Positions 12,057 through 28,521 are shown, counted from the stretch's first letter. The stretch is DNA of 28,521 nt from Nitrospirota bacterium (GCA_029858565.1 JAOUEV010000047.1:1-28521), one strand, 5' to 3'. Numbers and translations: made by a program. Notes: generated by a model from the letters alone, not told the origin.

Positions 12057-12716
12057 TTATTCGATCCGTATTATGCCTTTCTGGATCGCGAACTTGATCA
12101 ATCCCGCCCGCGAGTGGATATTCAGTTTTTCGGTGATATTGGTCTGGTGTGCGATCACGGTCTTTACGCTGATTCCGAGAATATCAGCCGCTTCCTTGTG
12201 TGTGTTCCCTTCTGCAATGAGCTTCAGGACCTGCTTCTCCCGGTCCGTGAGCATATCGTACGGGTCCTCCCGCGGTTCCCCCTTCGACAGACCCAGATAA
12301 CCATCCACAACACCTGAGGTGATAGATGGATGGACATAGATCTTACCCTCGCGAACGGCCCGTATTGCCGTAAGGAGGTCCTCACCAACCGCTTTTTTCA
12401 GCAGATAACCTGATGCTCCCGCCTTGAAGAACCGCCTGATATATACCGTATCTTCGTACTGCGTCAGGACCAGGACCTTCACGTTCGGCAGTATCTTTTT
12501 CAGTTCGATGGTCGCTTCGAGGCCACCCAGACCGGGCATGGAAATGTCCATGAGAACAATGTCCGGGCGAGTCTTCCTGGCCGCTTCGATCGCTTGAGCG
12601 CCATCGGCTGCCTCTCCTACGACCTCGCACTCGTCGGACATTTTCAAGAAAGAAGCGATCCCCTGACGTACCATCGCATGGTCATCAGCGATCAATACCT
12701 TTGTTTTGAGTCCCAT
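12057..12716 (-). CDS. NarL/LuxR-family DNA-binding response regulator
   Basis: Receiver IADDHAMVR..MDISMP..GASGYLLK; LuxR HTH LTDREKQVLKLIAEG...LGISVKTV. Confidence 0.95.
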   Translation of the reverse strand: MGLKTKVLIADDHAMVRQGIASFLKMSDECEVVGEAADGAQAIEAARKTRPDIVLMDISMPGLGGLEATIELKKILPNVKVLVLTQYEDTVYIRRFFKAGASGYLLKKAVGEDLLTAIRAVREGKIYVHPSITSGVVDGYLGLSKGEPREDPYDMLTDREKQVLKLIAEGNTHKEAADILGISVKTVIAHQTNITEKLNIHSRAGLIKFAIQKGIIRIE

Positions 12717-12717
12717 A

Positions 12718-14529
12718 TCATTCCTCCGGCCGAAGGGGAACGGTGCACAGGACTGTTGTCCCTCCGCCCTGCTTCGAGCATACTTTCAAAGTGCCATTTA
12801 CCTGCGTCGCGCGTTCCTTCATGCCCATGATCCCCAGCCCGCGTCCGGTCATGGTATTCTCGAAAACCGACTCGGTCTCGAATCCCTTCCCGTCATCCTC
12901 GATGCTCATGAAGAAGGAATGGTCGTCGTTCTTTATGTGGATCTGCACGTGTTCTGCGCCGGCATGACGCCCGATATTCGTCGTTGCTTCCTGAAATATC
13001 CTGAAAAGAGTCAGTTGGATCTCCGGAGGAATCCGGTCCTCGACCAGTTCCTGCATGTTAACATGGCAGTGAAGGCCTTTCTCCCTCAAATTGCGGTCGA
13101 TGAGCCAGACGATACCTGCCTCGAAACCGAGGTCGTCGAGAACCGTCGGCCGCAGGTTCTGGATCACCTTGGTCATTTCATTGATGACGACGGTAACGGT
13201 TTGTTTCATCACCGAAACCTTTTCCGGCGTGATCAGGTCGGGATGCAATCGGCACATCTCGATGTTCATGAGAAGCGCGGATAATGTTTGCAGCGAATCG
13301 TCGTGCAGCTCCCGGGCGATGCGCTTGCGTTCGTCCTCCTGCGAGGTGATCAGCTTGCGCAGAAGTGAAGTGTTGACCCTTTGCTTTTCCTCGAGCTGGC
13401 GGGTCCTGTCCCTGACCCGCTGCTCCAGCTCCATGTTGTACTGCTGGATGCTCTTCAGGGAGGCGTCCAGCTTCGTGCGCATGTCGTCGAATTGCTCCGC
13501 AAGCGTCCTGATCTCGTCGGCGCTTTCGATCTTGACCGGAACGGACAGGTCCCCCCGGGCAATCCGCTCTGTGGCGCGGATGAGCTGCTGGACGGGTTTG
13601 ACAATGCTCTTACTCATTCCCAAGGCAAGGATGAACGAGGTTGCGAGCGCGATCACTGCCAGCACGACAAATCCTCGCTGCAGCGACGTTGAGGGAGCGT
13701 AAACCTGGTCACGGGGAACGCGGATAGCGACGCCCCATGGAGCGAGGTCGAGCGGAGAGAAGATCAGGATGTCTTCAGTACGCCGCTGATATCCTGATGC
13801 GTCTGCCAGATGGCACCGGTGGCACGCAGCCACGGTGCTTTGCTTTGAGTCGATGAGCTTGCTCAGGAACTTGTTGTGGTCGATCCCGCTGAGGATGCTG
13901 CTGGGATGGTTCGAGGCGATGACAATGCCCATGTTGTCGACGAGTTCGATGTTGGTCCGCTTTTCCAGCACAAGGGAGGTGAGGATCCTGGTGAAATGGT
14001 AGCTCGTGGGGTCGATAAGACCTCCGGCGGTCCCGACGACATCCCCGCTTTTATTCCGCAGGGGAACAAGAGCGAAAATGACCTTGCGCCGCGAGGGCTC
14101 CATAGTGAAGACGCTGGAGATGACCGGCCGCATCTCCGATATCACCCGGCTGACCGGCGGGACGCCCAGCAGGTTGATCGCCTCTCCCTCTCGGCTGGGA
14201 TAGGATATCAGGACATTCCCGAGCTTGTCCAGAAGAAAGATCCCGTCGGAAAAGATGGAATAGTGATAGGCGGCTTGCAGTGCCTGCTCTTCCGGGGTCC
14301 AGTTCCCGTCACGCAGGTCGATCTTATCCGCCAGTGAAATATCGTAAAGCCTCGTAAGATTTTCCTCAAGAACATGGTCGATCATGGTCGCGATAATGCC
14401 TGCTTCCCCGCGACGGTCCTCGTAGGAGCGTTCGATGGTGTCCTGGATGTGGTAGTAGCTGATAAAACCGAGGCTGAGAAGGATAATGAGGACGCTGAGA
14501 AGGATAGAGATGATGATTCTTCTTTGCAT
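12718..14529 (-). CDS. Membrane sensor histidine kinase (Cache-like sensor containing CxxCH, HAMP, HisKA_3, HATPase)
   Basis: Two TM segments; CHRCH between them; HAMP (KPVQQL..IARGDL..DEI..LA..F..M); QEDERKRIARELHD; QEATTN..RHA, DDGKGF, GLGI.GM.ER. Confidence 0.93.
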   Translation of the reverse strand: MQRRIIISILLSVLIILLSLGFISYYHIQDTIERSYEDRRGEAGIIATMIDHVLEENLTRLYDISLADKIDLRDGNWTPEEQALQAAYHYSIFSDGIFLLDKLGNVLISYPSREGEAINLLGVPPVSRVISEMRPVISSVFTMEPSRRKVIFALVPLRNKSGDVVGTAGGLIDPTSYHFTRILTSLVLEKRTNIELVDNMGIVIASNHPSSILSGIDHNKFLSKLIDSKQSTVAACHRCHLADASGYQRRTEDILIFSPLDLAPWGVAIRVPRDQVYAPSTSLQRGFVVLAVIALATSFILALGMSKSIVKPVQQLIRATERIARGDLSVPVKIESADEIRTLAEQFDDMRTKLDASLKSIQQYNMELEQRVRDRTRQLEEKQRVNTSLLRKLITSQEDERKRIARELHDDSLQTLSALLMNIEMCRLHPDLITPEKVSVMKQTVTVVINEMTKVIQNLRPTVLDDLGFEAGIVWLIDRNLREKGLHCHVNMQELVEDRIPPEIQLTLFRIFQEATTNIGRHAGAEHVQIHIKNDDHSFFMSIEDDGKGFETESVFENTMTGRGLGIMGMKERATQVNGTLKVCSKQGGGTTVLCTVPLRPEE

Positions 14530-14574
14530 AGGTCAGGGAGAGTCCGTTCTGCCCCGGCATGGGCTGTTACAGAT

Positions 14575-14603
14575 GCAATAGCATAACTCCGCAGGCCCGT
14601 CAA
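14575..14603 (-). promoter_or_regulatory. Possible internal promoter for the kinase/regulator pair
   Basis: Minus strand TTGACG-N17-TATTGC with a preceding TG; imperfect -10. Confidence 0.3.
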
Positions 14604-14673
14604 GGTGGAAAATACGTGCGTGCTCCCGCGGTCCCGCAGAGTCAGTCCCCGGTCGGAACAGTGCTGCGAAGGA

Positions 14674-15414
14674 TCAGTGCCCGCCGCTTTCTCCAGAGGC
14701 CGAGTGGCCATGACCGTTATGCTTGATGAGTTCCTCGACCGGGACGTTCTCGATGCGGGCCAGCTCCACGGGATGCTCGTGGATCATGCGCTCCCGGGAT
14801 ATCTTTCCGGTAAAGATCGCGGTGTCGAGCGGAAATACCTCGGGGCTGAATACCGAATTGTAGATGTGCCAGGTGACGATCACGAGGAAGGCAAGGAGCG
14901 CTTCATTCGAATGTGCGGCTTTGGCCGCCGGGATGAATTCGCCGGGGAGCACGCGGGCGACATCCACCGGGAACCAGAGGATGAGCCCGGTCGATATCAT
15001 CAGGAAGCCTCCCGCAATGACCCCCCAGTATTCGAACTTCTGCTTGTAGTCGTAGCGGTCGCACAGGGCGGGATGTGAATTGATCCCGAAATAATATTTC
15101 ATGTTCTCGATGGCGTTACGGAAATCATTGATGTTGATCATCATAGCTGCCGGCCAGCGCTTGATGATCACGCCATAGATGCCGGTGACGATATGAACCA
15201 GGATCAGGCAGGCGAACAGGAGACCTGAATAACGATGCACGACTCGCATGGTATCGACACCCCCGAGCGTCAGGGTAATCCAGTGTGACACCCGATACTC
15301 GTGAAAGCGCTGCGCGAGGCCGGTGATGACCAAGAGGGTGAAGACGATGGCATTCGCCTGGTGCTCGAGAATGCGACCAAATCCGAATCGTTTTATTAAG
15401 GCATGGGCTGTCAT
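14674..15414 (-). CDS. Di-heme cytochrome b membrane subunit (FdnI/HyaC/CbcB-like)
   Basis: Four hydrophobic helices with histidines (ILEH, VVHR, AAHSNEA.LA, TWHIY); RYDYKQKFEYW motif; AAGGAGG RBS. Confidence 0.88.
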   Translation of the reverse strand: MTAHALIKRFGFGRILEHQANAIVFTLLVITGLAQRFHEYRVSHWITLTLGGVDTMRVVHRYSGLLFACLILVHIVTGIYGVIIKRWPAAMMININDFRNAIENMKYYFGINSHPALCDRYDYKQKFEYWGVIAGGFLMISTGLILWFPVDVARVLPGEFIPAAKAAHSNEALLAFLVIVTWHIYNSVFSPEVFPLDTAIFTGKISRERMIHEHPVELARIENVPVEELIKHNGHGHSASGESGGH

Positions 15415-15453
15415 TCTACACTCCCTCCTTCGTCTCGATTAGCTGTACGGATC

Positions 15454-16893
15454 TCAGCGGTTCACCGCGTAGCGCCACACATGGAGCAGGATCTGCAGGA
15501 TCAGACCGACCAGCATAAAGGGGATGAACAGCTTGTAGGTCAGGTTGATCAGGAAGACCAGCGGCGCGTTGGTAAGGCTCGGTTCATAATGGGACAGCCA
15601 CGCGTCCGGGAACGATCCGGCGGCTCCGGCATGGCATTTTTCACAGCGTTTGACCAGCCGGGACTTTACCATGTTGGTCGCGGGGCCCGAGGTCTTTGTG
15701 ATGTCATGGATCCCGTGGCAGTCAATACAGGTCGCGATGGATTTCCGGGAACTTTCCGGTGAGGCGTCCTTCTGCTTCCTGTAGAACTTCAGGGTGATCC
15801 CATGGAAGTCGGAGAGATAGGAGTTCACCACTCCAGCGTAGAGCCCGTATTTCTTCATAAGCACGGCGTCGCCGTGGCAGCGTCCGCAAATTTCAGGAAC
15901 CTTTTCCCGGTAATCCTGGGTGTGGGCCCCCTGTATCGTGTGGGCCGTGTGGCAGTCGGCGCAGATGGGGACATCAAGATTATGCTCCTGCAGGAGCGCA
16001 TTGCCGTGGACGCTCCGGGTGTATGTCCCAAAGATGTCCTGATGGCACCGGCCACAGCGCTGAGAACTCTTCACTTTGTCCGCGCGCGCCTGCGCGACAG
16101 AATGTGCACCATGACAATCGGTACAGACCGGCGCATTGAGATTGCCCTGGCTGAGCACTGAATAGTGGATGCTTTCGAGGGTCTTCGTGTACTTGTCGAA
16201 ATGGCAGCGCCTGCACGCCTCCGCCTGGGCTATGGAAAAATCACGGGGTGAATTGAAGTTGCGCTTGGGGTGCTGGGTACCGGAGAACCCGAAGTGACAG
16301 TCAAAACAGGCAAGCTTCGCATGGACCGATCCATCCAGTGCGGCCGAGTCCACCTTAAGGGATACCGATTCCCCGTTCCGGAGCTTGATCCCCATAGAGT
16401 GCCGGTGGCAGCCGAGGCAGTAGTCCTTTTCGTTCGAGTGCTTCTTGCCGGCGGTGATCGCGGTGATCTCATGGGGATTGTGGCAGCCGGAGCAGACCGG
16501 CGCCTTGTTCCCGCTCTTGAGGAGCGATGCGTGCACGGGAACCTTGCTGATCATTTCATCGGGATGGCATTGATGACAGACCTGGGAGGCTTTCAGCGCA
16601 TAGAGCTCTCTGCTCTTGAACTTCCGCTCGGGATGGTCCTTGGCCGAGAATTCCCCGTGACAGGCGGTGCAGCTGAGCGAACCGTGCATGGACGCCTGAT
16701 ATTTGTTCCGGTCGACATACGCCTCAAGCGTCTCTCCGTTCTGCAGGGCGTAGTTCACGCCTTTCTGCCCGTGGCAGCCAAGGCACTCGATCGCCTCCGC
16801 GGGAAGGTTCGGTTCCGCGGCTGCGGCGATACCGGAGAGCAGGATAAGGGCGAGCAGGCAAATTCCGAGAAAGGACGTTTCCCGATGTCCCAT
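15454..16893 (-). CDS. Membrane-anchored multiheme cytochrome c (13 CxxCH)
   Basis: Start at ATG 16893 (AAGGAGG RBS); signal peptide; CLGCH, CTACH, CHQCH, CSGCH, CLGCH, CFDCH, CRRCH, CTDCH, CGRCH, CADCH, CGRCH, CIDCH, CEKCH; C-terminal TM helix. Confidence 0.93.
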   Translation of the reverse strand: MGHRETSFLGICLLALILLSGIAAAAEPNLPAEAIECLGCHGQKGVNYALQNGETLEAYVDRNKYQASMHGSLSCTACHGEFSAKDHPERKFKSRELYALKASQVCHQCHPDEMISKVPVHASLLKSGNKAPVCSGCHNPHEITAITAGKKHSNEKDYCLGCHRHSMGIKLRNGESVSLKVDSAALDGSVHAKLACFDCHFGFSGTQHPKRNFNSPRDFSIAQAEACRRCHFDKYTKTLESIHYSVLSQGNLNAPVCTDCHGAHSVAQARADKVKSSQRCGRCHQDIFGTYTRSVHGNALLQEHNLDVPICADCHTAHTIQGAHTQDYREKVPEICGRCHGDAVLMKKYGLYAGVVNSYLSDFHGITLKFYRKQKDASPESSRKSIATCIDCHGIHDITKTSGPATNMVKSRLVKRCEKCHAGAAGSFPDAWLSHYEPSLTNAPLVFLINLTYKLFIPFMLVGLILQILLHVWRYAVNR

Positions 16894-16978
16894 CGTGATC
16901 CTCCTTTGTTCCGTTGAAAGGCGCTGTGTGATCATGGCTGCGAACCGATGTGGCGGCGTGTCTCCATACTTGGTCCGA

Positions 16979-17693: not shown

Positions 17694-18683
17694 TCAGACC
17701 AGAAAATAGTTGATGCCCGCGATCGACGCCAGGGTGATCGCAAAGGCCGGTATGCCGCTTCCCGAGGAAGGGGGAAGGTCCTCTTCAAGCCGGGTGATGC
17801 GGCTTTCGATCAGCAGCGTATGGCTGTACTCCTCGATGCGATCGCGGATCTGCGTCCCGTCCGGCATACTGTGCTCACGGGATTCATCGCCGTAGTAGAA
17901 CTTGCTCAGTGCGCTTGCCAGGGCCGCGCGGTTTCCGGTCATCTGCACGGCTACGTCATCGCAGATCTTCTCCTCTTCCTGAACGATCCTGCGGAATTCC
18001 ATCAGGACGACCGGATTGAAGAACATGCATATCCGGAGCAGGAACACCAGCACCATGATCGGTCGTCTGCTCCGGGCGATATGTCCGATCTCATGGGCGA
18101 TCGCCGCCCTGAGCTCGTCGGTCTCCAGCCTGCGGGTCAGGCCGCTGGAGAGATAAATGGCCGGTCGTTTGCCGGTGGTGGAGAATATGAGCGGTTCATC
18201 GTCATCAATGACCAGGACCTCCGGCTTGTCGCCGGGAAGCGCAGCCAGCGCGAGAGCTTCCGACGAGCCCGCTGCCGGGGACTCCGCCTCAATACCACCC
18301 TCGTCCGATGAGGCGGAATGACGAACGATCGGGATGATCTCCTGCAGCAGGAACACGAGCGACGCGAAGCCCAGGAACAGGAGGAACAGAAGGCCGACGC
18401 TGACCGGTCCCAGAATGCTCAGGTTGAGCCACCGGTTGATGTCAAAGAGAGCATCGATCCGGAAGGCCGGAGAACCCCGCTCCGGCGACAGGAGCTGAAA
18501 GAGCGGAAACGAGACGATCGGGGTTATGATGACGATCAGCCGGAAGGGCTGACGGATCAACGGGTCCTCGATCTTCCACGCGAGCAGCGCGATGTCGACC
18601 AGGAGGGCCGCAACGAGCGCATGGAGAAACGATTGGGCCACGTACATGCCCGGCCAGGAGTTAAAGAAGTCGGCGATGGTCAT
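17694..18683 (-). CDS. M56 (BlaR1-like)/M48 integral membrane zinc metallopeptidase
   Basis: Several TM helices, ELRAAIAHEIGH (HExxH), FFNP, EEEKICDD, LASAL; start set at ATG 18683. Confidence 0.85.
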   Translation of the reverse strand: MTIADFFNSWPGMYVAQSFLHALVAALLVDIALLAWKIEDPLIRQPFRLIVIITPIVSFPLFQLLSPERGSPAFRIDALFDINRWLNLSILGPVSVGLLFLLFLGFASLVFLLQEIIPIVRHSASSDEGGIEAESPAAGSSEALALAALPGDKPEVLVIDDDEPLIFSTTGKRPAIYLSSGLTRRLETDELRAAIAHEIGHIARSRRPIMVLVFLLRICMFFNPVVLMEFRRIVQEEEKICDDVAVQMTGNRAALASALSKFYYGDESREHSMPDGTQIRDRIEEYSHTLLIESRITRLEEDLPPSSGSGIPAFAITLASIAGINYFLV

Positions 18684-18743
18684 GATGCATTGCGATCGGT
18701 GCCTGCTGACGGCGGAGTGACAGTGGATCCCGGCCCCGGAGCT

Positions 18744-18795
18744 ATTATAGCGAAAAAAAGCGTGTATTGTGGGAAAAAAGCGATTGCTATATAAT
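18744..18795. promoter_or_regulatory. Back-to-back divergent promoters (peptidase operon / NUDIX gene)
   Basis: TATAAT on the minus strand at 18749-18744; plus strand TTGTGG (18767-18772)-N17-TATAAT (18790-18795). Confidence 0.55.
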
Positions 18796-18854
18796 GCCCG
18801 CGGGAGCATCGGAAACGCTGCATATCATTGACCGTTGCGGGAGGACCTCGACCG

Positions 18855-19505
18855 ATGGAACAGGCACAGGAACAGTTCGATGTGCTGGATCGTGCCGGCA
18901 AAAGGACCGGAAGGATGATCAAGCGCGACGAGGCCCACGCGTCCGGCGCCTGGCATGGAGCGTTCCACTGCCTGATCACGTATCACCGCGAGGGACGGCT
19001 TTGTGCCCTGTTCCAGCTCCGTTCCCGGGACAAGAAGATAGCGGCTGGAAAGTTCGATGTGAGCGTGGGCGGCCATTACGCGGCCGGGGAAGGGCCGGAA
19101 ACCGCGGGGCCCCGGGAGATCAGCGAGGAACTGGGGCTTGCTGTGCCGTTCTCCGCGCTGGTGAGTCTGGGCAAAAGGGTCTTTGTCTACGGTTTTCAAC
19201 CAGGCGTGCAGGAGTGCGAATTCCAGGACGTGTTCCTGCTGCCTCTTGACGGACCTCTCTCGCATCTGTCACTCCAAAAGGAAGAGGTGGACGGGGTCCT
19301 GGAAATGGACGTGGAAAAGGGTATCAGGCTCTTTTGCGCGGAAATCCCTTCACTCGAGGCGGCATTGACCCGAAGCAACGGAGCGCAGGAGCGTGTTTTC
19401 GTGCGTTCCGAGGATTTCGTGCCGAGCCTGGACAACTACTACCTGAAGCTCCTTCAACTCGCTAAGCGGTATAGCAGGGGCGAGCAGGCGGTGCTGTTGA
19501 TATGA
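18855..19505 (+). CDS. NUDIX hydrolase (IPP-isomerase-like subfamily)
   Basis: DVLD..G..TG..RDEAH..G.WH, LFQLRS..K....GKFDVSVGGH..AGE......REISEELG, LQKEEV; GGAGG RBS. Confidence 0.85.
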   Translation: MEQAQEQFDVLDRAGKRTGRMIKRDEAHASGAWHGAFHCLITYHREGRLCALFQLRSRDKKIAAGKFDVSVGGHYAAGEGPETAGPREISEELGLAVPFSALVSLGKRVFVYGFQPGVQECEFQDVFLLPLDGPLSHLSLQKEEVDGVLEMDVEKGIRLFCAEIPSLEAALTRSNGAQERVFVRSEDFVPSLDNYYLKLLQLAKRYSRGEQAVLLI

Positions 19506-19767: not shown

Positions 19768-20277
19768 ATGAGCGAACAAGGTGTTTCCCGCCGAAATTTC
19801 ATGACCCGGACGATCATCGCGATCATAGCTTTCATCGGCGCGGCGATCACGGTGCCGCTCGCCGGATTCGGCATACTGCCAGCGATCCGCAAAGGCCAGG
19901 CGGGATGGAGCGATGCCGGGACCTTCAAGGACCTTGAAGTAAACACGCCCCAGGAGCGGCGGTTCGCCCAAACCGTCAAGAATGGATGGCAGGAAGACCA
20001 TATGGAGCGGACGGTCTGGCTGGTCCGGAAGCCCGATGGCACCATCAAGGCGTTCTCGCCGAGCTGCCCCCATCTCGGATGCGGGTACCGGTGGTTCGGT
20101 CAGGAACAGCGCTTCAAGTGCCCCTGCCACGCGAGCATTTTCGACATTGACGGCAAGGTCCTCGCGGGGCCGTCCCCGCGTGCGCTCGATGGGCTCGAAG
20201 CGAAGGTCGAGGATGGGAAGGTGTTCGTGAAGTTCGAGATCTTTCAGGTCGGGACAACGGCCAAGGTTTCCGCATAG
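19768..20277 (+). CDS. qcrA: Rieske [2Fe-2S] subunit of a quinol:cytochrome c oxidoreductase
   Basis: Tat motif SRRNF plus TM helix; CPHLGC and CPCHASIF boxes; GPSPRAL; AGGAGG RBS. Confidence 0.93.
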   Translation: MSEQGVSRRNFMTRTIIAIIAFIGAAITVPLAGFGILPAIRKGQAGWSDAGTFKDLEVNTPQERRFAQTVKNGWQEDHMERTVWLVRKPDGTIKAFSPSCPHLGCGYRWFGQEQRFKCPCHASIFDIDGKVLAGPSPRALDGLEAKVEDGKVFVKFEIFQVGTTAKVSA

Positions 20278-20286: not shown

Positions 20287-21612
20287 ATGATCAAGCTTGT
20301 GCTCGACTGGATAGATGAACGCATCAAAGTGCGGGAACTGTGGCGGTCCTTTGCCGACCGGCAGATCCCCGGCGGCGCCAGCTGGTTCTACGTGCTCGGC
20401 GCATCGCTCGTTTTCATCTTCACCCTTCAGGCGATGACCGGCATCCTGCTGACCATGTACTATGCGCCCACGCCGGACCACGCTTACGCGAGCGTGAAAT
20501 ACATCCAGAACGAGGCGCCATTCGGGAGCTTCGTGCGCGGTCTGCATCATTGGGGCGCGAGCTTCATGATGGTGATCGTGGCGCTCCATCTGCTCCGGGT
20601 GTTCGTGTTCGGTTCATACAAAAAGCCCCGGGAGATCATCTGGGTGATCGGGGTGGGGCTCATTGCCGTGGTCGGCGGATTCGCGTTCACCGGATACCTG
20701 CTTCCCTGGGACCAGAAGGCCTACTGGGCCACGGTGGTCGGCACGAATGTTGCCGGGACGGTGCCGGTCATTGGAGGGACGCTTCTCAGGATCGTGCGCG
20801 GCGGCACCGAGCTCGGAGCACTCTCGCTCAGCAGGTTCTTCGCGATCCATACCTATATCCTTCCCGCAACCCTCGCGTTGCTTGCGGGGCTGCATATTTT
20901 TCTGCTTGAGCGGGCGGGCGCCGGCGGCATCTGGAACGCCGCTGACCGCGTCCCGTATAAGACAGAGCCGCTCTTCCCGAACCAGATATTCCGCGACACG
21001 ATCATGATCCTGGTTCTGTTCATTGCCCTGAGCGCTCTTGCGCTCCTGTTCCCGGCGCCGCTGGAGCCCCAGGCTGATCCAACTGACAGTTCGTACAATC
21101 CGCGGCCGGAATGGTACTTCTACTTCGTGTTTCAGCTGCTCAAGATATTCGAGGGAAAGTTCGAGCTGGTCGGGACCGTCATTCTGCCGAACATTGCCAT
21201 TGGCGTTCTGCTGCTCATCCCGTTCCTCGACCGTGGGCCGGAGCGGGACCCCATGAAGAGAAAGGCCATGATGACCGCGGCAGCACTGGCGGTCCTGTCG
21301 GTCATCGGACTGACCCTCGCGGGCGCGCGGGCTCCCATTGTGAATGAACCTGCGGTCACGTCGCCTTCGGTCCTGGCAGGGCGGGATATCTACCGTAGGC
21401 ATGGGTGCGAGGCCTGCCACAGCATTCACGGCAAGGGCGGCAAGGTCGGGCCTGACCTGACCCATGTGGCGGTCAGGCGTCCTGAAGCGGAATGGCACTA
21501 CCGTCATTTCCGGGATCCCCGGGCCGTGGTGCCGGGATCGATCATGCCGAGGATCGAGCTGACGGACAAGGAACTGAAGGAGCTTACCGACTATATGCTG
21601 AGCCTGAAATAA
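20287..21612 (+). CDS. qcrB: Cytochrome b (b6-like + subunit IV) fused to a C-terminal monoheme cytochrome c
   Basis: RGLHHWGAS..LHLLR, FTGYLLPWDQKAYWA, RFFAIH..LH, Qo-site PEWY, then CEACH...GPDLT...PGSIMP. Confidence 0.93.
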   Translation: MIKLVLDWIDERIKVRELWRSFADRQIPGGASWFYVLGASLVFIFTLQAMTGILLTMYYAPTPDHAYASVKYIQNEAPFGSFVRGLHHWGASFMMVIVALHLLRVFVFGSYKKPREIIWVIGVGLIAVVGGFAFTGYLLPWDQKAYWATVVGTNVAGTVPVIGGTLLRIVRGGTELGALSLSRFFAIHTYILPATLALLAGLHIFLLERAGAGGIWNAADRVPYKTEPLFPNQIFRDTIMILVLFIALSALALLFPAPLEPQADPTDSSYNPRPEWYFYFVFQLLKIFEGKFELVGTVILPNIAIGVLLLIPFLDRGPERDPMKRKAMMTAAALAVLSVIGLTLAGARAPIVNEPAVTSPSVLAGRDIYRRHGCEACHSIHGKGGKVGPDLTHVAVRRPEAEWHYRHFRDPRAVVPGSIMPRIELTDKELKELTDYMLSLK

Positions 21613-21799
21613 AGGGATTTTTTTTGCGCTCGTGACAGGTCACTGTTTCCGTGCGATGACATCTACCCTCGGTTCGTGAAAACGGGTCGTAGGTAATCTT
21701 TTCCCCTGAGTTCAAATGCCTGCTTTTGCCTTTGGCTTCTCGTGATGAGGCAGTTTGTTGCATGTTGAGCACTTCCCCCCCCTCCCCACACACATTTTT

Positions 21800-21829
21800 T
21801 CGACAGGTATCTCGATTCTGTGATATTCT
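21800..21829 (+). promoter_or_regulatory. Candidate arr promoter overlapped by TCGA repeats
   Basis: TCGACA (21800-21805)-N18-TATTCT with an extended TG; TCGA-N8-TCGA dyad at 21800-21815. Confidence 0.3.
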
Positions 21830-22103
21830 CGACATATGCACTGTCTGTTGCATGGCAAAATCCTTCCGCGTAAAAAATGTAAATGACAACTAGGGTGATC
21901 CTCCTGGCGCCGTGAAACAGCTATGCCCATTGCAGGTTTCATGTATCAGAGGTTCCGCACAAGGTATGCGCATCAGCACTGCCTCGGAATGTTAAAAGCG
22001 CGGAACAGCCTTGATCGTGGTGAGGACCACCTGCTCTCGAAGACGCGATTCTCTGTATCGGATCGGACAGGGATTCTATCTCAACGTTGAAAGGGAGGTT
22101 GCG

Positions 22104-24680
22104 ATGCAAATAAGAAGAAGGGATTTTCTTAAGACGGGCCTTGCAGCAGGTGCAGCAGCGGCATTAATCGGTCCGTCGCTGAATGCATTCGCCGCTGACA
22201 AGACAGAGGAAAAGTCTACCGGCGGCACTGAACCCGGAGAGTGGATGCCCTCTACTTGTCAGGGCTGCACTGCCTGGTGTCCTGTCGAGTTCTTCGTGCA
22301 GGAAGGCCGCGCGGTCAAGGTGCGCGGCAACCGGTTCAGCAAGGCCAATAACGGCTACGTCTGCCCGCGCGGCCACCTGATGCTGCAGCAGCTCTACGAT
22401 CCCGACCGGATCAAGGTCCCTATGAAGCGAACCAATCCTGAAAAGGGGCGCGGTATAGATCCCAAGTTCGTCCCGATCACCTGGGACGAAGCTTTGGACA
22501 CCATCGCGGACAAGATGATGGAACTGCGCAAGGCCGAGGAGCCGGAGAAGTTGATGTACATGCGCGGGCGATACTCTCCGTCATCTACCGATCTGCTCTA
22601 CGGCACACTACCCAAGATCTGGGGTACTCCCAACTATTTTTCCCACAGCGCGATATGTGCTGAAGCGGAAAAGATGGGACCCGGGTACACCCAGGGGTTC
22701 TTCGGCTACCGAGACTATGACCTAGCAAAGACCACTTGCCTGGTAATCTGGGGCTGCGATCCTCTCAGCTCCAACCGACAGGTGCCGAATGCCATAAGCA
22801 AATTCGGCGACATTTTCGACCGCGGTACGGTGATTGCCGTTGATCCGCGCTTCTCTACCTCGGCTGCCAAGGCAACTGAGTGGTTGCCCATCAAACCGGG
22901 AGAGGACGGCGCCTTGGCCGCAGCCATGGCTCACGTGATTCTGACCGACGGGAAGTGGAGCAGGGAGTTCGTCGGCGATTTCAAGGATGGCAAAAACCTC
23001 TTCAAGGCAGGCAAGACTGTTGACGAGGCGGCTTTTGTAGAGAAGGAAACTAACGGCGTGGTCAAATGGTGGAACATCGAGCTGAAGGACAAGACCCCGG
23101 CATGGGCCGCCAAAAAGACTCTGATCCCCAAGGGGCAGATCATCCGCGTGGCCCGTGCCATGAGCGTCGCAGGCTCTTCCTGCGCGGTCTATATGGGTCC
23201 CGGTGTGGCAATGACGCCCAGAGGCACCTATACCGCCATGGCGGTCTACGCCTTGAACGGTCTGCTCGGTTCCATTGATACCGAGGGCGGCGTAATGCAG
23301 AGCTCCGGTGCGCCGACGGAAAAGTTCCCCAAGCCTGACGCGTTCATCGATGAGATTGCCAAGCACCACGGCCACGGCAAAAAGATCGACGGACGCGGCG
23401 CCAAGGACATGCCCGCGATCCTCGGCGGTTTCGAGAAGAAGAAGGACAAGGAAGGAAAAGAAATAGAAAGCCCCCTAGCCAATGTGGTGACCAACAACGT
23501 GGCCAACGGTCTCTTGAAGGATTCGGGGGCCATCAAGGTGTTCCTCAGCACCTGGAGCAACTTCGTGTTTTCCTGCACCGGGACTGAGCGATGGGAAAAG
23601 GCCATGGCCAAGATGCCGTTCTTTGTGCACATGGTCACCAATGCATCGGAGATGACGCAATATGCCGACATCGTATTGCCGGCCACCTTCGCCCCGGCGG
23701 AGAAGCTTTCTATTGTCACCAACATGGCGAATCTTCACGGCCACATGTCCATCCAGCAGCCGGTGATCAAGCCGCTCTGGCAGGCCAAGCCGGAGGAGAC
23801 TGAGGTCATGTGGCTTCTAGCCGAGAAACTGAAGGTCAAGGGATTTGCCAATCTCTTCGACTATTATGCTTCCTTTGAAGATCCTGAAACCAAGAAGAAG
23901 CCTGCCAATGCCGCAGAGTTCGCCGAGATCGCCGCAAAGATCTCCAGCCAGAAGGTATGGAACGGCAAGGAAAAGATGAAGGGCGATCAGATCGCGGGCT
24001 GGGAGGAATTTAAGCAGAAGGGAATCTACAACTCCGAAACCTACGCCTACAAAAAGAACTGGGGCAAGTTCAAGACCGTAACCAAAAAGTTCGAGTTCTA
24101 CGGCGAAACGTTAAAGAAAACCCTCACGTTGTTTGCCGAAAAACACAAGACCAGTATCGACGACGTGCTGAAGTCGAGCGGTTACGAAGCCCAGGGCGAA
24201 CTGGCTTTTGTGCCCCACTACGAGTCACCCAAGCGTCACGGCAGCGACAAGGAATACCCCTTTACCTTCATCGACTACAAGTCGCGGCTCAACCGGGAGG
24301 GACGGAGCCAGAACACGACATGGTACCACGAGTTCAAGAAGGTGGACCAGGGAGACGTGAGCTGGGACGACGTGGCCAAGATCAATCCAAGCGACGCCAA
24401 AAAGCTGGGGATCAAGAACGGCGACGTCATCCGCCTTACCTCTACCACCGGCTCCATCGTGACCAAAGCGAAGTTGTGGGAAGGGGTGCGTCCCGGCACG
24501 ATCGCCAAGTGCTATGGTCAGGGCCACTGGGCATACGGCCGCGTTGCCGCAAAGGATTACGCCAAGGCGCAGCCGCGCGGCGGCAACAATAACGAACTTC
24601 TCGTTGACGACTACGACCGTTTGAGCGGGGCCACGGCCCGCAACGGCGGTTTCACCGGCGTCAAGATCGAGAAGATATAG
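22104..24680 (+). CDS. arrA: Respiratory arsenate reductase catalytic subunit (Mo-bisPGD, DMSO reductase family)
   Basis: Tat signal RRRDFLK; CX2CX3CX27C Fe-S motif (CQGCTAWC..C); ArrA-diagnostic RGRY (ArxA has GRGWG); SHSAICAEAEK catalytic motif; SRLNREGR, GQGHWAYG; GGGAGG RBS. Confidence 0.93.
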   Translation: MQIRRRDFLKTGLAAGAAAALIGPSLNAFAADKTEEKSTGGTEPGEWMPSTCQGCTAWCPVEFFVQEGRAVKVRGNRFSKANNGYVCPRGHLMLQQLYDPDRIKVPMKRTNPEKGRGIDPKFVPITWDEALDTIADKMMELRKAEEPEKLMYMRGRYSPSSTDLLYGTLPKIWGTPNYFSHSAICAEAEKMGPGYTQGFFGYRDYDLAKTTCLVIWGCDPLSSNRQVPNAISKFGDIFDRGTVIAVDPRFSTSAAKATEWLPIKPGEDGALAAAMAHVILTDGKWSREFVGDFKDGKNLFKAGKTVDEAAFVEKETNGVVKWWNIELKDKTPAWAAKKTLIPKGQIIRVARAMSVAGSSCAVYMGPGVAMTPRGTYTAMAVYALNGLLGSIDTEGGVMQSSGAPTEKFPKPDAFIDEIAKHHGHGKKIDGRGAKDMPAILGGFEKKKDKEGKEIESPLANVVTNNVANGLLKDSGAIKVFLSTWSNFVFSCTGTERWEKAMAKMPFFVHMVTNASEMTQYADIVLPATFAPAEKLSIVTNMANLHGHMSIQQPVIKPLWQAKPEETEVMWLLAEKLKVKGFANLFDYYASFEDPETKKKPANAAEFAEIAAKISSQKVWNGKEKMKGDQIAGWEEFKQKGIYNSETYAYKKNWGKFKTVTKKFEFYGETLKKTLTLFAEKHKTSIDDVLKSSGYEAQGELAFVPHYESPKRHGSDKEYPFTFIDYKSRLNREGRSQNTTWYHEFKKVDQGDVSWDDVAKINPSDAKKLGIKNGDVIRLTSTTGSIVTKAKLWEGVRPGTIAKCYGQGHWAYGRVAAKDYAKAQPRGGNNNELLVDDYDRLSGATARNGGFTGVKIEKI

Positions 24681-24698: not shown

Positions 24699-25499
24699 AT
24701 GCCTAAATACGGAATGGTCATAGATCTGCAGAAATGCGTGGGCTGCGGCGCATGCGCCCTCGCCTGCAAGACAGAGAATAATACCCAGGACCGGGCCGAC
24801 GGACAAACCTTCAACTGGGCCGATTACCTCATGAAAGAGGAAGGGAAGTTCCCCAATGTCAAGGCCAGCACCATGCCGGTGCTGTGCAACCACTGCACCG
24901 ACGCGCCGTGCATAAAGTCCTGCCCGGTAACGCCGAAGGCCATGTTCAAAACGCCGGACGGCATCACCATGCATAATGATGAGAGGTGCATCGGCTGCCA
25001 GAACTGCCAGCGGGCCTGCCCCTACAGCGCCACGGACGTGGACAAGAGCAAGGCCGCTTACAGCGTGATCAGTTTCAACGCCCACGGCGGCACGACGCAT
25101 CCGTTCTACCGTGACTCAAAGGAGATGATCCCCGGCTGCACCGCGTCGGGAGCCGAGGTGTCCAAGGCAGCCGGAGACAGCCCTCCGCACCGCAATCTTT
25201 ACAAACATCCGGATTATGAGAGCGTTCGGAAGAGCGGCATCGTGGAAAAATGCATATTTTGTGAGCACCGGGTGAAGAAGGGCGAACTGCCTTATTGCGT
25301 TGTTTCCTGCCCGGCAAAGGCCCGCATCTTCGGAGATCAGGACGATCCGAACAGCGAGATCAGCCTGGTCCTCAAGAAACACAAGCCGGTTCAGCTCAAG
25401 AGCAACAAGGGCGGAATCCTGAAGGCCGGCGAAAAGAGCACGAAGCCTAACGTGTTTTATGTCAGGAGCTACAAACCTTCGGCCGGGAAAGCGTCGTAA
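24699..25499 (+). CDS. arrB: Arsenate reductase four-[4Fe-4S] subunit
   Basis: CVGCGACALAC, CNHCTDAPCIKSC, CIGCQNCQRAC, CIFC..CVVSC; directly after arrA; AAAGGAG RBS. Confidence 0.92.
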   Translation: MPKYGMVIDLQKCVGCGACALACKTENNTQDRADGQTFNWADYLMKEEGKFPNVKASTMPVLCNHCTDAPCIKSCPVTPKAMFKTPDGITMHNDERCIGCQNCQRACPYSATDVDKSKAAYSVISFNAHGGTTHPFYRDSKEMIPGCTASGAEVSKAAGDSPPHRNLYKHPDYESVRKSGIVEKCIFCEHRVKKGELPYCVVSCPAKARIFGDQDDPNSEISLVLKKHKPVQLKSNKGGILKAGEKSTKPNVFYVRSYKPSAGKAS

Positions 25500-25512
25500 T
25501 TGCGTTACGGGT

Positions 25513-25557: not shown

Positions 25558-25601
25558 ATCGGGGTCCGGTGATCCTGAGGGGAAAATGGAGAGGGGGCTG
25601 T

Positions 25602-26270
25602 ATGGATATTGAACAATTCGTCAAATTCGAACGGGCACGGAGCGATTGCTATAAATTGCTCGCGGCTTGTTTTTATCAGCCGCAAAAGGCGATGCTTTTG
25701 GATGAGAACGTATTTGCAATGCTCGGCGATCTGCTGACACGGATCTGTCCGGATGCGGAATTGTTTTCAAAGAAGATGGCGGAATCGCTCATGCGCTACG
25801 ATGAAGAGGCGCTCCTTGTGGAGTACGCGCGGCTTTTTTTGGGGCCCAATGAACTTCTCGCTCCTCCTTACGGCGCGGTTTATCTCGACAAGGGTGGAAT
25901 ATTGATGGGGGAATCAACGGCCAAGGCCGTGGATTTCTACAAGGCGGAAGGCCTGTCCATGGATCAACATTATTATAATCTGCCGGACCATATCACGGCA
26001 GAACTGGAATTCATGCACTATCTCACCTACCGGGAAGTCGAAGCTCTTGAAAAAAACGACACAGAAAAAGCACGGTACTGTCTGGATCGACGTGAAGCAT
26101 TCATGCTGACGTGCCTGGGCTCCTGGGTCGCTCCTTTCTGTGAAAAAATAAAACAGGGTACGGATAATGAATTTTATCGGGCGTTGGCAGACTGCCTGTC
26201 CGTTTTCCTGTCGAAAACGGGCCATTGCGAGATGCCGGTGGAACTGCAGGAATCCCTTGCGCGAGTTTGA
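25602..26270 (+). CDS. arrD: TorD/DmsD-family chaperone
   Basis: EYARLFLGP..LLAPPYGAVY, LPDHITAELEFM, W...F...I......FY. Confidence 0.9.
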   Translation: MDIEQFVKFERARSDCYKLLAACFYQPQKAMLLDENVFAMLGDLLTRICPDAELFSKKMAESLMRYDEEALLVEYARLFLGPNELLAPPYGAVYLDKGGILMGESTAKAVDFYKAEGLSMDQHYYNLPDHITAELEFMHYLTYREVEALEKNDTEKARYCLDRREAFMLTCLGSWVAPFCEKIKQGTDNEFYRALADCLSVFLSKTGHCEMPVELQESLARV

Positions 26271-26278
26271 TAGATACG

Positions 26279-27313
26279 ATGTTGACGGACAAGATCATTA
26301 CGAAAACCCTGGGCGGCGCGGACTCCCTGGTGGCAGCGGACCGGTCCCGATGCGGGAGAATGCGGTTCAGCAGGAATACCTGTTCCCACTGCACCGCTAT
26401 TTGCGACGCAGCAGCTATATCCATTGACGGCGCGATCATAATCGACGCGGCGAAGTGCACGGGCTGCATGCTCTGTGTTTCCGAGTGCCCATCAGGATGT
26501 TTGTCGGCGGCAGGTGAGGATTTCGACCTCCTCCTCGCCAAATTGCGTAAGACGGAGAAGTCCGTTCCATCCTGTGTTGTCAGTTGTAAAACAGCTCGGG
26601 ACAGGTCGGCGCACGCAAAAACAAGCTGCCTCGGTTTTCTGTCGGAGGAACACCTGATGGTCCTGGCGGGGTCTCTCGATAAGCCGCTGTATCTCGACCT
26701 GAGCGCTTGCGGCGCATGCCGGAATTCTTTCATCATTGACAAACTTCGGGAACGCGTTCGCAACGTGCAGGCAAATACCGGCATCAATATCCGGGAGAAA
26801 ATCATCCTGGCAGAAGATGCAGGGGCATTGGCGTTCGAGGACGTTTCTCTGGACAGAAGGGGATTTTTCCAGGCGCTCAAAGCGGCGACGTTCATGCAGG
26901 TCGCCGGATTTCTTGATGAACAGGAAGTGAAAACCCCCGCTTCCTACGGTGAAAAAAAAGTGACCGCGAAACGTCAGCTGCTGAACAGGTTGCTCAAGAG
27001 CTTATCCGACGGCAAAGCGGCCACAGCCATACTCAACAGCTATGCTTTTACGGTGAAGACCGGATCGTCCTGTACGGTTTGCTCCGCCTGTGTGGGCATG
27101 TGCCCCACCGGCGCGTTGCAAGTCAGGAAGGATGCAAACAGTGCGGAGCTTCTGTTTAATTCCTCGCTGTGTCATGGTTGTTCATTGTGTAAGGACATCT
27201 GTCCGGCAGCGGCCGTTGCCGTGACAAGCGGATTCAACGGCAAAAATTACTTCGAACATGAAATATGTCATGCGGTTAATTCCGCATCTCGAGACGCGGT
27301 GAACAAGAATTAA
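26279..27313 (+). CDS. Polyferredoxin (multi-[4Fe-4S]) accessory protein of the arr cluster
   Basis: C..CSHCTAIC, CTGCMLCVSECP, CGAC, CTVCSACVGMCP, CHGCSLCKDICP; start ATG 26279, or TTG 26267 overlapping the arrD stop. Confidence 0.85.
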   Translation: MLTDKIITKTLGGADSLVAADRSRCGRMRFSRNTCSHCTAICDAAAISIDGAIIIDAAKCTGCMLCVSECPSGCLSAAGEDFDLLLAKLRKTEKSVPSCVVSCKTARDRSAHAKTSCLGFLSEEHLMVLAGSLDKPLYLDLSACGACRNSFIIDKLRERVRNVQANTGINIREKIILAEDAGALAFEDVSLDRRGFFQALKAATFMQVAGFLDEQEVKTPASYGEKKVTAKRQLLNRLLKSLSDGKAATAILNSYAFTVKTGSSCTVCSACVGMCPTGALQVRKDANSAELLFNSSLCHGCSLCKDICPAAAVAVTSGFNGKNYFEHEICHAVNSASRDAVNKN

Positions 27314-27349
27314 CGCAGATTTGCGGAGGAACGGGGGTATTGTTGTTGT

Positions 27350-27976
27350 ATGGAAAGCGCTCCTGATTTTGAAACGCTTCTGCAGGAATCCGTCCGTATC
27401 CACGGCCACCTCTGCGCGGGACAGGTGCTCGGCGTCCGCATGTCCATGCTCGGGCTGCGGGAGATCGGCATCGGCGACCCGAAGGGCGCGGATCGGAAGA
27501 GCCTGATCGTTTTCGTCGAGATGGACCGGTGCGCCACCGACGCGGTCCAGTCCGTTACGGGTTGCAGCCTGGGCAAGAGAAGCATGAAATTCATGGATTA
27601 CGGAAAGATGGCGGCGACGTTCCTGAACCTGAAAACCGGCAAGGCCGTCCGGGTCTTCGCGCGCGAAGACTCCCGGGACAAGGCAAAGGAGCGTTTTCCG
27701 GAGATTGAGAATAAATATACCGGACAGCTTGAGGCGTACAAGATCATGTCCGATGAAGAGTTGTTCGACGTGATGGAAGTTGCCATCAACATCGCGCCGC
27801 AGGACATGCCGGGCAGGCCGATGCGCAGAGTGCAGTGTGACACCTGCGGTGAGCACGTTCAGGATATGAGGGAGGTCTATCAGGACGGCAAGGTCCTGTG
27901 CGTTCCTTGCGCTCGGGGCGGCTACTACGAAGTGAATCAGTCTTTATCGGCGGTGCGTTATGCGGAAAAGTCATAA
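27350..27976 (+). CDS. fmdE: FmdE/FwdE-family protein with C-terminal zinc finger
   Basis: HGHLCAGQVLGVRM, VEMDRCATDAVQ..TGCSLGKR, D.GK.AATF, CDTCGE...CVPC. Confidence 0.88.
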   Translation: MESAPDFETLLQESVRIHGHLCAGQVLGVRMSMLGLREIGIGDPKGADRKSLIVFVEMDRCATDAVQSVTGCSLGKRSMKFMDYGKMAATFLNLKTGKAVRVFAREDSRDKAKERFPEIENKYTGQLEAYKIMSDEELFDVMEVAINIAPQDMPGRPMRRVQCDTCGEHVQDMREVYQDGKVLCVPCARGGYYEVNQSLSAVRYAEKS

Positions 27977-28325
27977 CGGATTGGAGATAAGATCGAAGGT
28001 GTGGATCGAGGTTGACGGCGAGCCTGTGTTCGGCCGGGGGAGACGGTTCCTGCTCGAAGCCATAGAAACTCATGGTTCCATCAATCGGGCCGCCGAAGAT
28101 GTCGGCATTTCCTACCGGAAGGCGTGGTGTCATATCAAGGCCATGGAAGAACGGCTCGGCGTCCAGCTTGTCGAGCGGCAGGCCGGCGGAAGGAACGGTG
28201 GCGGCGCGCGTATCACCGATGAAGCCAGAGTTTTCCTGAACAAGTTTGAGCAGATGGAAGCGGGTATCCGTGAAGTCGTCGACGAAAAATTCAAAGCCCT
28301 TTTTCTGGGAGGTTCCCATGTGTGA
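27960..28325 (+). CDS. modE: ModE-family winged-helix regulator, DNA-binding domain only
   Basis: SKVWIE..G..VFG.GR..LLEAI...GSI..AA...ISYRKAW, GG..GGGA.IT; only 121 aa. Confidence 0.85.
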   Translation: MRKSHNGLEIRSKVWIEVDGEPVFGRGRRFLLEAIETHGSINRAAEDVGISYRKAWCHIKAMEERLGVQLVERQAGGRNGGGARITDEARVFLNKFEQMEAGIREVVDEKFKALFLGGSHV

Positions 28326-28521
28326 CGATGCGCATGAGGGTCATCATCATACTGCAACAATGAAATCGATCCCGGTCAATCTGGCTGTCGGCACGGTCCT
28401 TGCCCATGATATCACCGAGATACGGCCTGGCGAGTTCAAGGGACGGGCTTTCAAGAAGGGCCATGTGGTTCGCGAAGAGGATATTTGCCATCTCCAGCGG
28501 CTGGGCAAGGAACACCTCTTT
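28318..28521 (+). CDS. Molybdopterin-binding (MoeA-like/MoCF biosynthesis) protein, 5' part, truncated by window end
   Basis: Manual translation MCDDAHEGHHHTATMKSIPVNLAVGTVLAHDITEIRPGEFKGRAFKKGHVVREEDICHLQRLGKEHLF; GGGAGG RBS; 8-bp overlap with modE. Confidence 0.75.
   Translation, partial: MCDDAHEGHHHTATMKSIPVNLAVGTVLAHDITEIRPGEFKGRAFKKGHVVREEDICHLQRLGKEHLF

Follow-up and report, generated by a model that had tools for sequence, protein, structure and literature searches.

A predicted arsenate respiration island without arrC lies beside a resident cytochrome block in a Nitrospirota genome bin

In aquifers and paddy soils, arsenic is mobilised by respiratory arsenate reduction, and the arrA sequences detected there most often are of the Geobacter type (PMC4319506). 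The membrane anchor ArrC accompanies the reductase ArrAB in only few organisms (PMC8076601, PMC2500031), and Geobacter lovleyi and Shewanella are named as lacking it (PMC2500031). Bacterial arr clusters are often without arrC (PMC13685797). In Shewanella, ArrAB depends on CymA, which is encoded elsewhere (PMC2762525). Here we analyse a stretch of 28,521 bases (the window), which is the entire contig C122 of a 3.9-Mb, 144-contig Nitrospirota genome bin. It carries an arr cluster without arrC next to a Rieske/cytochrome b-c pair, a pair made of a 13-haem cytochrome c and a cytochrome b561-like protein, and a sensor kinase with a CxxCH motif. The original prediction was that one of the two neighbouring cytochrome modules feeds ArrB. 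Our results point to a different reading: a resident cytochrome block lies beside an arr-ars island, none of the neighbours is a dedicated partner, and the host's cytochrome pool feeds ArrAB. We give this joint reading a probability of about three in four.

The evidence comes from the relatives of the host. ArrA is present in eight of the 64 genomes of the order (seven of 19 genera) and in none of the three same-genus relatives. The order HU, regulator, kinase, b561, 13-haem cytochrome, M56 peptidase, NUDIX, Rieske and cytochrome b-c is found whole in three genomes without arr (G019:C8, G021:C4 and G061:C247), and one of these, G021, is a 100% complete bin in which the block is intact. The arr-less G039, from the same genus as our host, keeps the block in pieces (C97, C35). 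Two arr-bearing genomes keep it on contigs other than that of arr (G023:C59, G020:C87), and a third, G016, has HU-NUDIX-Rieske-cytochrome b-c in this place and the 13-haem cytochrome elsewhere. The original prediction had named as evidence against itself that relatives lacking arr keep the same cytochrome modules here. Because they do, the wiring drawn from adjacency fails by its own standard. The functional idea is not thereby disproved, but no evidence for such wiring at this locus is left: the neighbourhood gives no evidence on how ArrAB gets its electrons.

All genes listed in the original prediction were found where it had placed them. Gene calls rest on an open reading frame (ORF) listing, Pfam and NCBIfam scans, and translations. 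The features of the window are as follows.

339..12036, plus strand: housekeeping block of pheA, aminotransferase, aroF, tyrA, aroA, HEAT protein, cmk, ispH, rpsA, sppA and HU (Pfam); resident, the synteny anchor
12057..12716, minus strand: NarL/LuxR-type response regulator (Pfam/NCBIfam); resident, outside arr
12718..14529, minus strand: sensor histidine kinase with dCache-like, HAMP, HisKA_3 and HATPase domains (Pfam); resident
14674..15414, minus strand: cytochrome b561/FdnI-like membrane protein (Ni_hydr_CYTB, 52.3 bits); resident
15454..16935, minus strand: 493-residue multihaem cytochrome c with 13 CxxCH motifs (Pfam, translation); resident
17694..18809, minus strand: M56/M48-type membrane peptidase (Pfam); resident spacer gene
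18828..19505, plus strand: NUDIX-like gene (Pfam); resident spacer gene
19768..20277, plus strand: Rieske 2Fe-2S subunit (PF00355, 44.3 bits); resident
20287..21612, plus strand: cytochrome b (b6 and subunit IV) fused to a C-terminal monohaem cytochrome c (PF00033, 170.9 bits; PF00032, 42.7 bits); resident
21613..22103, no strand: 491-bp spacer between cytochrome b-c and arrA, the left island border (nucleotide comparisons, site scans)
22104..24680, plus strand: predicted ArrA, the catalytic subunit of respiratory arsenate reductase with a molybdenum bis-pyranopterin guanine dinucleotide cofactor (6CZ7_A match, NF041714, tree)
24699..25499, plus strand: predicted ArrB, four-cluster Fe-S subunit (NF041715, four Cys motifs)
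25569..26270, plus strand: ArrD, TorD/DmsD-type chaperone (PF02613, 96.5 bits)
26225..27313, plus strand: 362-residue polyferredoxin (Pfam, Cys motifs)
27350..27976, plus strand: FmdE-like protein (Pfam/NCBIfam)
27960..28325, plus strand: ModE N-domain regulator (Pfam/NCBIfam)
28318..28521, plus strand: MoeA-like (MoCF_biosynth) gene, first 68 codons; it runs off the contig end, with the rest most likely on contig C17

The Rieske gene adjoins a cytochrome b that has b6-like and subunit IV-like parts and a C-terminal cytochrome c, and the 13-CxxCH cytochrome has an N-terminal signal or anchor and a C-terminal transmembrane (TM) helix. At the other end of the window, upstream of pheA, two direct repeats of the CRISPR (clustered regularly interspaced short palindromic repeats) type lie at 7-43 and 78-114 (RF01322, 52.6 bits each), and the start of C122 is probably the edge of a CRISPR array.

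Gene by gene, the block behaves as part of the chromosome of this family. Orthologues of the response regulator (67-83% identity) sit in the same place in G019, G021, G023 and G061. Those of b561 (68-82%) are found in G019, G021, G023, G020 and G061, M56 and NUDIX are syntenic in these five as well as in G045 and G039, and syntenic Rieske orthologues share 61-75% identity. The housekeeping block has the same order in G019, G021, G023 and G016. A match to the 13-haem cytochrome at E<=1e-60 occurs in 46 of the 64 genomes, namely all the arr-bearing ones (7/7 relatives) and 38 of the 56 without arr. For cytochrome b-c, 18 relatives have an orthologue with 65% identity or more, and 14 of these are without ArrA. 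With the window's protein as query, arr-bearing G001 (96% complete) and G034 yielded no orthologue at this level, and G063 yielded just a 41% paralogue.

We also looked from the side of arrA, comparing its flanks over 10-20 kb on each side as contigs allow (G016, G023, G063, G034, G020) or as contig-end fragments (G001, G011). Even at E 1e-3, there is no match to the Rieske, cytochrome b-c, 13-haem, b561, kinase, peptidase or NUDIX proteins 5' of arrA in these relatives. In G023 and G020 this place holds SecA and an arrXSR-like trio, which consists of a double phosphonate-type binding protein, a Cache/HAMP kinase and a sigma-54 regulator. In G016 it holds arsP, thioredoxin, arsR, acr3 and arsC, and in G063 and G034 unrelated genes. 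The trio is absent from the window, and the closest match in the genome to the binding protein of G023 is 49% identical over half its length (on C134).

A wider survey took one genome per species and the best 80 of 257 ArrA relatives, which gave 77 loci with flanks of up to 10 kb; homologues were counted at a coverage of at least 0.5, and many loci are cut by contig ends. The recurring linkage for which such a survey had been proposed did not appear: none of the 77 loci has a Rieske, cytochrome b-c, 13-haem, b561, M56 or NUDIX homologue within 10 kb. ArrB is found in 66 loci, ArrD in 62, the polyferredoxin in 37, ModE in 14 and FmdE in 11.

The catalytic subunit is predicted to be an ArrA of the Geobacter type. 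It aligns at full length with the ArrA of Shewanella ANA-3 (6CZ7_A, 877.6 bits; residues 42-858 against chain residues 11-814), and the next-best structure, a thiosulfate reductase, reaches 154.3 bits. The NCBIfam equivalog model for ArrA, NF041714, gives 1006.4 bits over model positions 1-848 and beats PhsA (270.8 bits) by more than 700 bits. Its cut-off of 1600 bits is not reached, and we treat this cut-off as an annotation threshold that the Geobacter-type clade misses, not as a defining property of the enzyme. The protein carries the twin-arginine translocation (Tat) motif RRRDFLK at its N-terminus and a CX2CX3CX27C Fe-S motif at residue 52, and it has no TM helix. Its stretches RGRYS and SHSaICAEAeK align with the same stretches in 6CZ7_A; we take RGRY and HSxxCAEAxK to be active-site stretches and the cysteine of the latter to be the molybdenum ligand (compare Glasser et al. 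2018). Next to it are encoded a TorD-type chaperone and an ArrB in which the motifs for four Fe-S clusters are present. In a tree of 67 rows, with support given by the Shimodaira-Hasegawa-like approximate likelihood ratio test (SH-aLRT), the window groups with three Nitrospirota bins (98), sister to Desulfurivibrionaceae (99), inside a 41-row clade that also holds Geobacter sp. OR-1 (99).

ArrB scores 240.9 bits against NF041715, below the cut-off of 450, and has four Cys motifs and neither a signal peptide nor a TM helix; ArrD has no predicted TM helix. The polyferredoxin, a member of a widespread 4Fe-4S protein family that has no name, carries at least three CxxCxxCxxxC motifs and, like ArrB, lacks a signal peptide and a TM helix. 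Its only sequence relatives among structures are the cytoplasmic polyferredoxins FwdF and MvhB, over about 60 residues. This suggests a cytoplasmic Fe-S protein, and because it sits among ArrD, FmdE, ModE and MoeA-like genes, a role in maturation or cofactor supply is suggested as well. These five genes together would serve cofactor supply and maturation. The order arrA-arrB-arrD-polyferredoxin-fmdE-modE-moeA-like is conserved in G016, G023, G020 and G011 and fragmented in G034. FmdE and ModE, which follow the polyferredoxin in all five, form a tail typical of Nitrospirota-type cassettes. G063 keeps the cassette as far as the polyferredoxin, where its contig ends.

Two observations on related genes may be recorded here. 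In G034 (G034:C16, loci L028/L029) the cassette is decaying: arrA has two in-frame TGA codons, and arrA, arrB, arrD and fmdE are fragmented over several frames. Another locus (G000:C138, 288-16898) holds a MoeA-like paralogue and a molybdopterin oxidoreductase with a weak ArrA-family match (about 62 bits), together with a trio of binding protein, kinase and sigma-54 regulator that resembles arrXSR. This suggests another molybdenum enzyme with arrXSR-like regulators.

It is an arsenic-resistance spot, and not the cytochromes, that would account for where arr lies. The original prediction saw no ars genes, which is true of C122 itself because the contig ends there. It does not extend to the locus, which most likely continues with ars genes on C17. 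The last 16 bases of C122 are exactly the first 16 of the reverse complement of C17, and the MoeA-like frame runs across this overlap, with residues 1-68 on C122 and residues 64-391 on C17 (the latter recognised by Pfam). After the MoeA-like gene follow arsP, DUF2703, arsR, acr3, trx, dsbD and arsC, the same ars tail as after the cassette of G023. Beyond arsC lie a small conserved ORF and SufC-like, SufBD-like and OmpA genes. In G020, DUF2703, arsC, the small ORF, SufC-like, SufBD-like and OmpA-like genes come directly after cytochrome b-c, and in G019 they do so after one extra gene. Judged from these gene orders, a putative island of about 12 kb sits between cytochrome b-c and the family's own arsC. 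It would have landed in a variable spot 3' of cytochrome b-c, where relatives already carry arsC. The window would then join a chromosomal block that is conserved across a Nitrospirota family to an arr-ars island, and the two would not have evolved together.

A 23.8-kb Logan contig (run X1, probably the source sample and hence not independent) covers 19500-27541 with no differences. Because it spans the same stretch, the junction between cytochrome b-c and arrA is not specific to one assembler. The 491-bp spacer gave no blastn match to the DNA upstream of arrA or downstream of cytochrome b-c in relatives, no match in a strict sigma-54 consensus search, and no Rfam family or riboswitch 5' of arrA. 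A scan of the spacer for promoters and terminators found a single weak terminator-like site and a single sigma-70-like site, roughly the number that shuffled sequences give. Direct repeats shared by both island borders were sought, and only chance-level matches of 9-14 bp came up; no integrase or transposase was seen. The GC content of the island (0.54-0.555) departs only slightly from that of the backbone (0.57-0.58). On C17, a short way past the ars genes, the SufBD-like and OmpA genes flank a pair that encodes a periplasmic binding protein of the phosphonate type and a hybrid kinase with HAMP and PAS domains (6333-9458, L185). This pair, which could be an oxyanion sensor, is absent at that place in G020 and G019.

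The same cassette is found at 80-91% ArrA identity in Nitrospirota, Desulfurivibrionaceae and Geobacteraceae bins, and the arr-ars island common to these three groups appears to have spread horizontally. Because they share the cassette at such identities, arrA surveys cannot assign activity to a taxon by sequence alone.

What, then, could deliver the electrons? Since ArrA has a Tat signal and neither ArrA nor ArrB has a TM helix, we expect ArrAB to be a soluble, Tat-exported periplasmic enzyme, as in Shewanella. The original prediction was right that the contig has no arrC and no NapC/CymA (there is no PF03916 or PF03264 match on C122). Its remark that some Geobacter arr clusters lack arrC agrees with the literature (PMC2500031). 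Genome-wide, a search for arrC with PF03916 (NrfD) gives four matches, on C73, C132, C24 and C18. The last three lie in other settings: hydrogenase-type on C18, selenocysteine formate-dehydrogenase-type on C24 and a contig end on C132. A search for cymA with PF03264 gives weak matches to two proteins, one with 10 haems on C56 and one with 11 haems on C73 (30.2 and 28.7 bits); a canonical tetrahaem NapC/NirT CymA was not found in the genome with PF03264. Around the 77 arrA loci, none of the 50 polytopic ORFs (230-520 residues, at least five predicted TM helices) matches PF03916; they are Acr3, ArsP, DsbD and other transporters. An NrfD profile that we made from the four paralogues of the genome had no match among 4368 ORFs of the 77 loci even at E 10, and we judge this profile too weak. 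The whole retrieved ArrA clade is ArrC-less and usually embedded in ars genes.

Many candidate donors are encoded away from arr. C74 encodes a second 13-haem cytochrome (604 residues) with a Ni_hydr_CYTB partner. On C73 there is a cluster of a tetrahaem (c3) protein, a Tat-signal Fe-S protein (NrfC), NrfD (128.9 bits) and the 11-haem protein, which has a NapC/NirT N-terminal region; a catalytic subunit is missing. C126 encodes an 8-haem protein that shares 27-30% identity, over about 300 residues, with NapC-type decahaems that lie 5' of arrA in Geobacteraceae. Finally, the genome holds at least five PpcA-like trihaems; trihaems on C5, C102 and C73 are 43-46% identical to the arr-linked trihaem c7. 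In our preferred reading, quinol would be oxidised by one or several resident quinol:cytochrome c oxidoreductases, and small periplasmic c-type cytochromes would carry the electrons to ArrB. For this feeding from a cytochrome pool, which we propose by analogy, we would give about even odds.

Cytochrome genes do adjoin arrA in other lineages. We counted cytochromes with at least three haems on the same strand within 3 kb upstream, using the 61 loci with at least 2 kb of sequence 5' of arrA. Such a cytochrome is present in 26 loci (11 trihaems, nine deca- or undecahaems and six with 7-9 haems), and 35 loci, those of the Nitrospirota type included, have none. The decahaem loci (L109, L113, L122, L127, L134, L137, L145, L151 and L175) encode proteins of about 450-540 residues with 10-11 haems directly 5' of arrA. 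The three that were tested with Pfam (L113, L175, L137) all have an N-terminal NapC/NirT domain; this protein looks like a dedicated CymA-like quinol dehydrogenase. In Geobacteraceae, the ArrAs linked to decahaems fall into a single clade (SH-aLRT 100). At L124 (9589-9891) and at ten further loci of the Geobacteraceae type, arrA is immediately preceded by the gene for a trihaem cytochrome c7 of about 100 residues; Pfam assigns the trihaem tested (L124) to cytochrome c7. A polyferredoxin occurs in ten of the 11 trihaem clusters vs none of the nine decahaem clusters, five of which have about 10 kb of downstream sequence.

Beta- and gamma-proteobacterial bins have a third arrangement, a 7-9-haem cytochrome with a cytochrome b of about 205-218 residues beside arrA. 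All five four-helix partners tested match Ni_hydr_CYTB. The pairs are

L157, 2487-4731: 7-/9-haem cytochrome and Ni_hydr_CYTB pair
L160, 7606-9892: 7-/9-haem cytochrome and Ni_hydr_CYTB pair
L165, 7169-8868: 7-/9-haem cytochrome and Ni_hydr_CYTB pair
L166, 17384-19029: 7-/9-haem cytochrome and Ni_hydr_CYTB pair
L180, 2228-3842: 7-/9-haem cytochrome and Ni_hydr_CYTB pair

Going by domains and gene order, other lineages seem to have fixed three dedicated upstream solutions: a NapC-type decahaem, a 7-9-haem and b561 pair, and a trihaem c7. Hence, the general idea that a multihaem/cytochrome b module can replace ArrC has genomic precedent in other lineages and none at this locus. A description of such a modular set of electron-entry proteins was not found in the literature searched, the scope of which did not include the Geobacter OR-1 arr/ars expression study. 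Our comparison removes a tempting false lead on electron wiring, and the cytochrome genes that recur at arrA elsewhere provide a testable comparison instead.

One could also argue that the neighbouring 13-haem and b561 pair, under the haem-sensor kinase, is the quinol dehydrogenase that replaces ArrC for ArrB. The pairs beside arrA at L157, L160, L165, L166 and L180 have a similar make-up, their 7-haem proteins are weakly similar to the window's 13-haem cytochrome (23-25% identity, E 1e-7 to 1e-9), and all seven arr-bearing relatives match that cytochrome. However, so do 38 of the 56 arr-less genomes, where the pair is syntenic without arr. In the window, 5 kb and a change of strand separate the pair from arrA, in G023 and G020 the pair and arr occupy different contigs, and none of the 77 arrA loci has a homologue of it. 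The arr-linked cytochromes b match the paralogue on C74 (E 1e-26 to 1e-32) and not the window's b561 at E<=1e-5. We therefore consider this explanation rather unlikely. A looser version is that an ArrC-less ArrAB is a plug-in terminal reductase, which taps whatever cytochrome-based quinol dehydrogenase the host has, here the resident 13-haem/b561 module under its haem-c sensor kinase; this we regard as a tentative possibility, still on the unlikely side. The claim for the Rieske/cytochrome b-c complex, which would pass electrons through its fused cytochrome c to ArrAB and possibly share a transcription unit with it, starts from the common strand, the 491-bp gap without a strong terminator, and a fused periplasmic cytochrome c that could act as a donor. 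Yet orthologues (at least 65%) are kept by 14 arr-less genomes and were not found in arr-bearing G001 and G034, in G023 and G020 the complex lies away from arr, and none of the 77 loci has it. In addition, a Rieske route is thermodynamically marginal for As(V), a caveat that the original prediction shared. This route is very improbable. We find it doubtful that a dedicated donor encoded elsewhere stands in for ArrC or CymA, be it the c3-NrfC-NrfD-11-haem cluster of C73 or the C126 protein with eight haems. The former combines NrfD with a NapC/NirT-like 11-haem protein and lacks a catalytic subunit, and the latter resembles the arr-linked NapC-type decahaems (27-30%), but neither is linked to arr, the NapC/NirT scores are weak (28.7-30.2 bits), and the other three NrfD genes stand in hydrogenase-type, formate-dehydrogenase-type or contig-end contexts.

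It is also most unlikely that the polyferredoxin of the cassette delivers the electrons to ArrAB. It travels with arrA in 37 of 77 loci, and its absence from decahaem clusters (0/9) and presence in trihaem clusters (10/11) could suggest interchangeable roles. However, ArrA is exported by Tat while the polyferredoxin carries neither a signal peptide nor a TM helix, its relatives over about 60 residues are the cytoplasmic FwdF and MvhB, and it sits among chaperone and cofactor genes. Another explanation is that the island is recently acquired cargo that is poorly or not at all expressed for respiration in this host. The island is without the binding-protein/kinase/sigma-54 trio of G023 and G020, of which no close orthologue was found in the genome, and the cassette is decaying in its relative G034. 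All cassette genes are intact here, however, and arsR lies within the island, so that we find the cargo explanation improbable. Several points weigh against our own reading of a resident block, an arr-ars island and a cytochrome pool. The donor is named by analogy. All eight arr-bearing genomes of the order match the 13-haem cytochrome, so that functional dependence is possible. Read-through transcription is possible too, with arrA on the same strand as cytochrome b-c, 491 bp downstream and without a convincing terminator between them. The relatives are metagenome bins, in which an absent gene can reflect incompleteness. And the most likely join of C122 to C17 rests on a 16-bp overlap in a gene with three paralogues, not on a spanning read.

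The sensor kinase belongs with the resident genes. It has two TM helices, a periplasmic dCache-like domain and one CxxCH motif (C236-H240) that is invariant in five of five aligned orthologues, down to 45% identity. The string of 13-haem cytochrome, b561, kinase and NarL-type regulator (minus strand, 12718-16935 for the first three) is kept in G019, G021, G023 and G061. The kinase travels with the 13-haem/b561 module and not with arr, independent of arsenic genes. The kinase may plausibly act as a haem-based redox sensor of the resident module, and with the regulator it would make up a candidate haem-sensing two-component system linked to a quinol oxidoreductase. A sequence search of the PDB with the kinase matched only the cytoplasmic transmitter domain, and the same search with the 13-haem cytochrome gave one weak match.

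Kinases also occur near arr elsewhere. Where others have the sigma-54 trio, the loci L112, L121, L129 and L132 (Desulfurivibrionaceae) as well as L125 (Rokuibacteriota) have a HisKA_3-type kinase and a NarL-type regulator, 0.3-2.8 kb 5' of arrA. We ruled these pairs out as a link between the window's sensor and arr: only the cytoplasmic part is common, and they have no CxxCH. Another Nitrospirae bin encodes, between an arrXSR-like trio and arrA, a kinase of the HAMP/HisKA type that has two CxxCH motifs (L108, 7626-9335). By its motifs it is a second, unrelated, putatively haem-bearing kinase near an arr cluster.

How does the locus compare with known systems? The closest is the arr-ars island in the isolate Geobacter sp. 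OR-1, for which respiration of arsenate has been demonstrated (PMC4319506). Its ArrA is 80% identical to that of the window and belongs to the same clade, it has no arrC, its gene order is also arrA-arrB-arrD-polyferredoxin (L142), it is embedded in arsenic-resistance genes, and its host is rich in multihaem cytochromes. The differences are the Nitrospirota host, the FmdE, ModE and MoeA-like tail, and the ars genes, which here are arsP, acr3, trx and dsbD downstream and in OR-1 are arsDA upstream. Moreover, arsenate respiration is demonstrated in OR-1 and predicted for the window's organism.

The resident 13-haem/Ni_hydr_CYTB pair has a counterpart in Geobacter as well. With its periplasmic multihaem cytochrome c and its FdnI-like cytochrome b, it would have the same two-part make-up as CbcL and CbcBA, quinol oxidoreductases that combine an inner-membrane multihaem cytochrome c with a dihaem cytochrome b. 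Unlike these, the pair in the window has 13 haems, its own C-terminal anchor and an adjoining haem-c sensor kinase. By this analogy, it is plausibly a quinol:periplasmic-cytochrome oxidoreductase.

Shewanella sp. ANA-3 provides the model for the electron route (6CZ7; PMC2762525). There, too, ArrAB is soluble, periplasmic and without ArrC, and ArrA aligns at full length with ours. In ANA-3 the gene for the donor, a c-type cytochrome quinol dehydrogenase, lies outside the arr operon, and we expect the same for the window. In contrast to ANA-3, no canonical tetrahaem CymA was found with PF03264 in the window's genome, and the cassette has the extra polyferredoxin and cofactor genes. The ArrABC(D) systems with an NrfD/PsrC-type anchor, such as that of Alkalilimnicola ehrlichii (PMC8076601 and PMC2500031), have the same catalytic and Fe-S subunits and a TorD-type chaperone. 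They differ from the window in that no NrfD gene is present on C122 and none was found in the 77 related arrA loci. ArrC-less arr clusters are already known, and the locus is a Geobacter-type ArrC-less arr-ars island in a Nitrospirota host.

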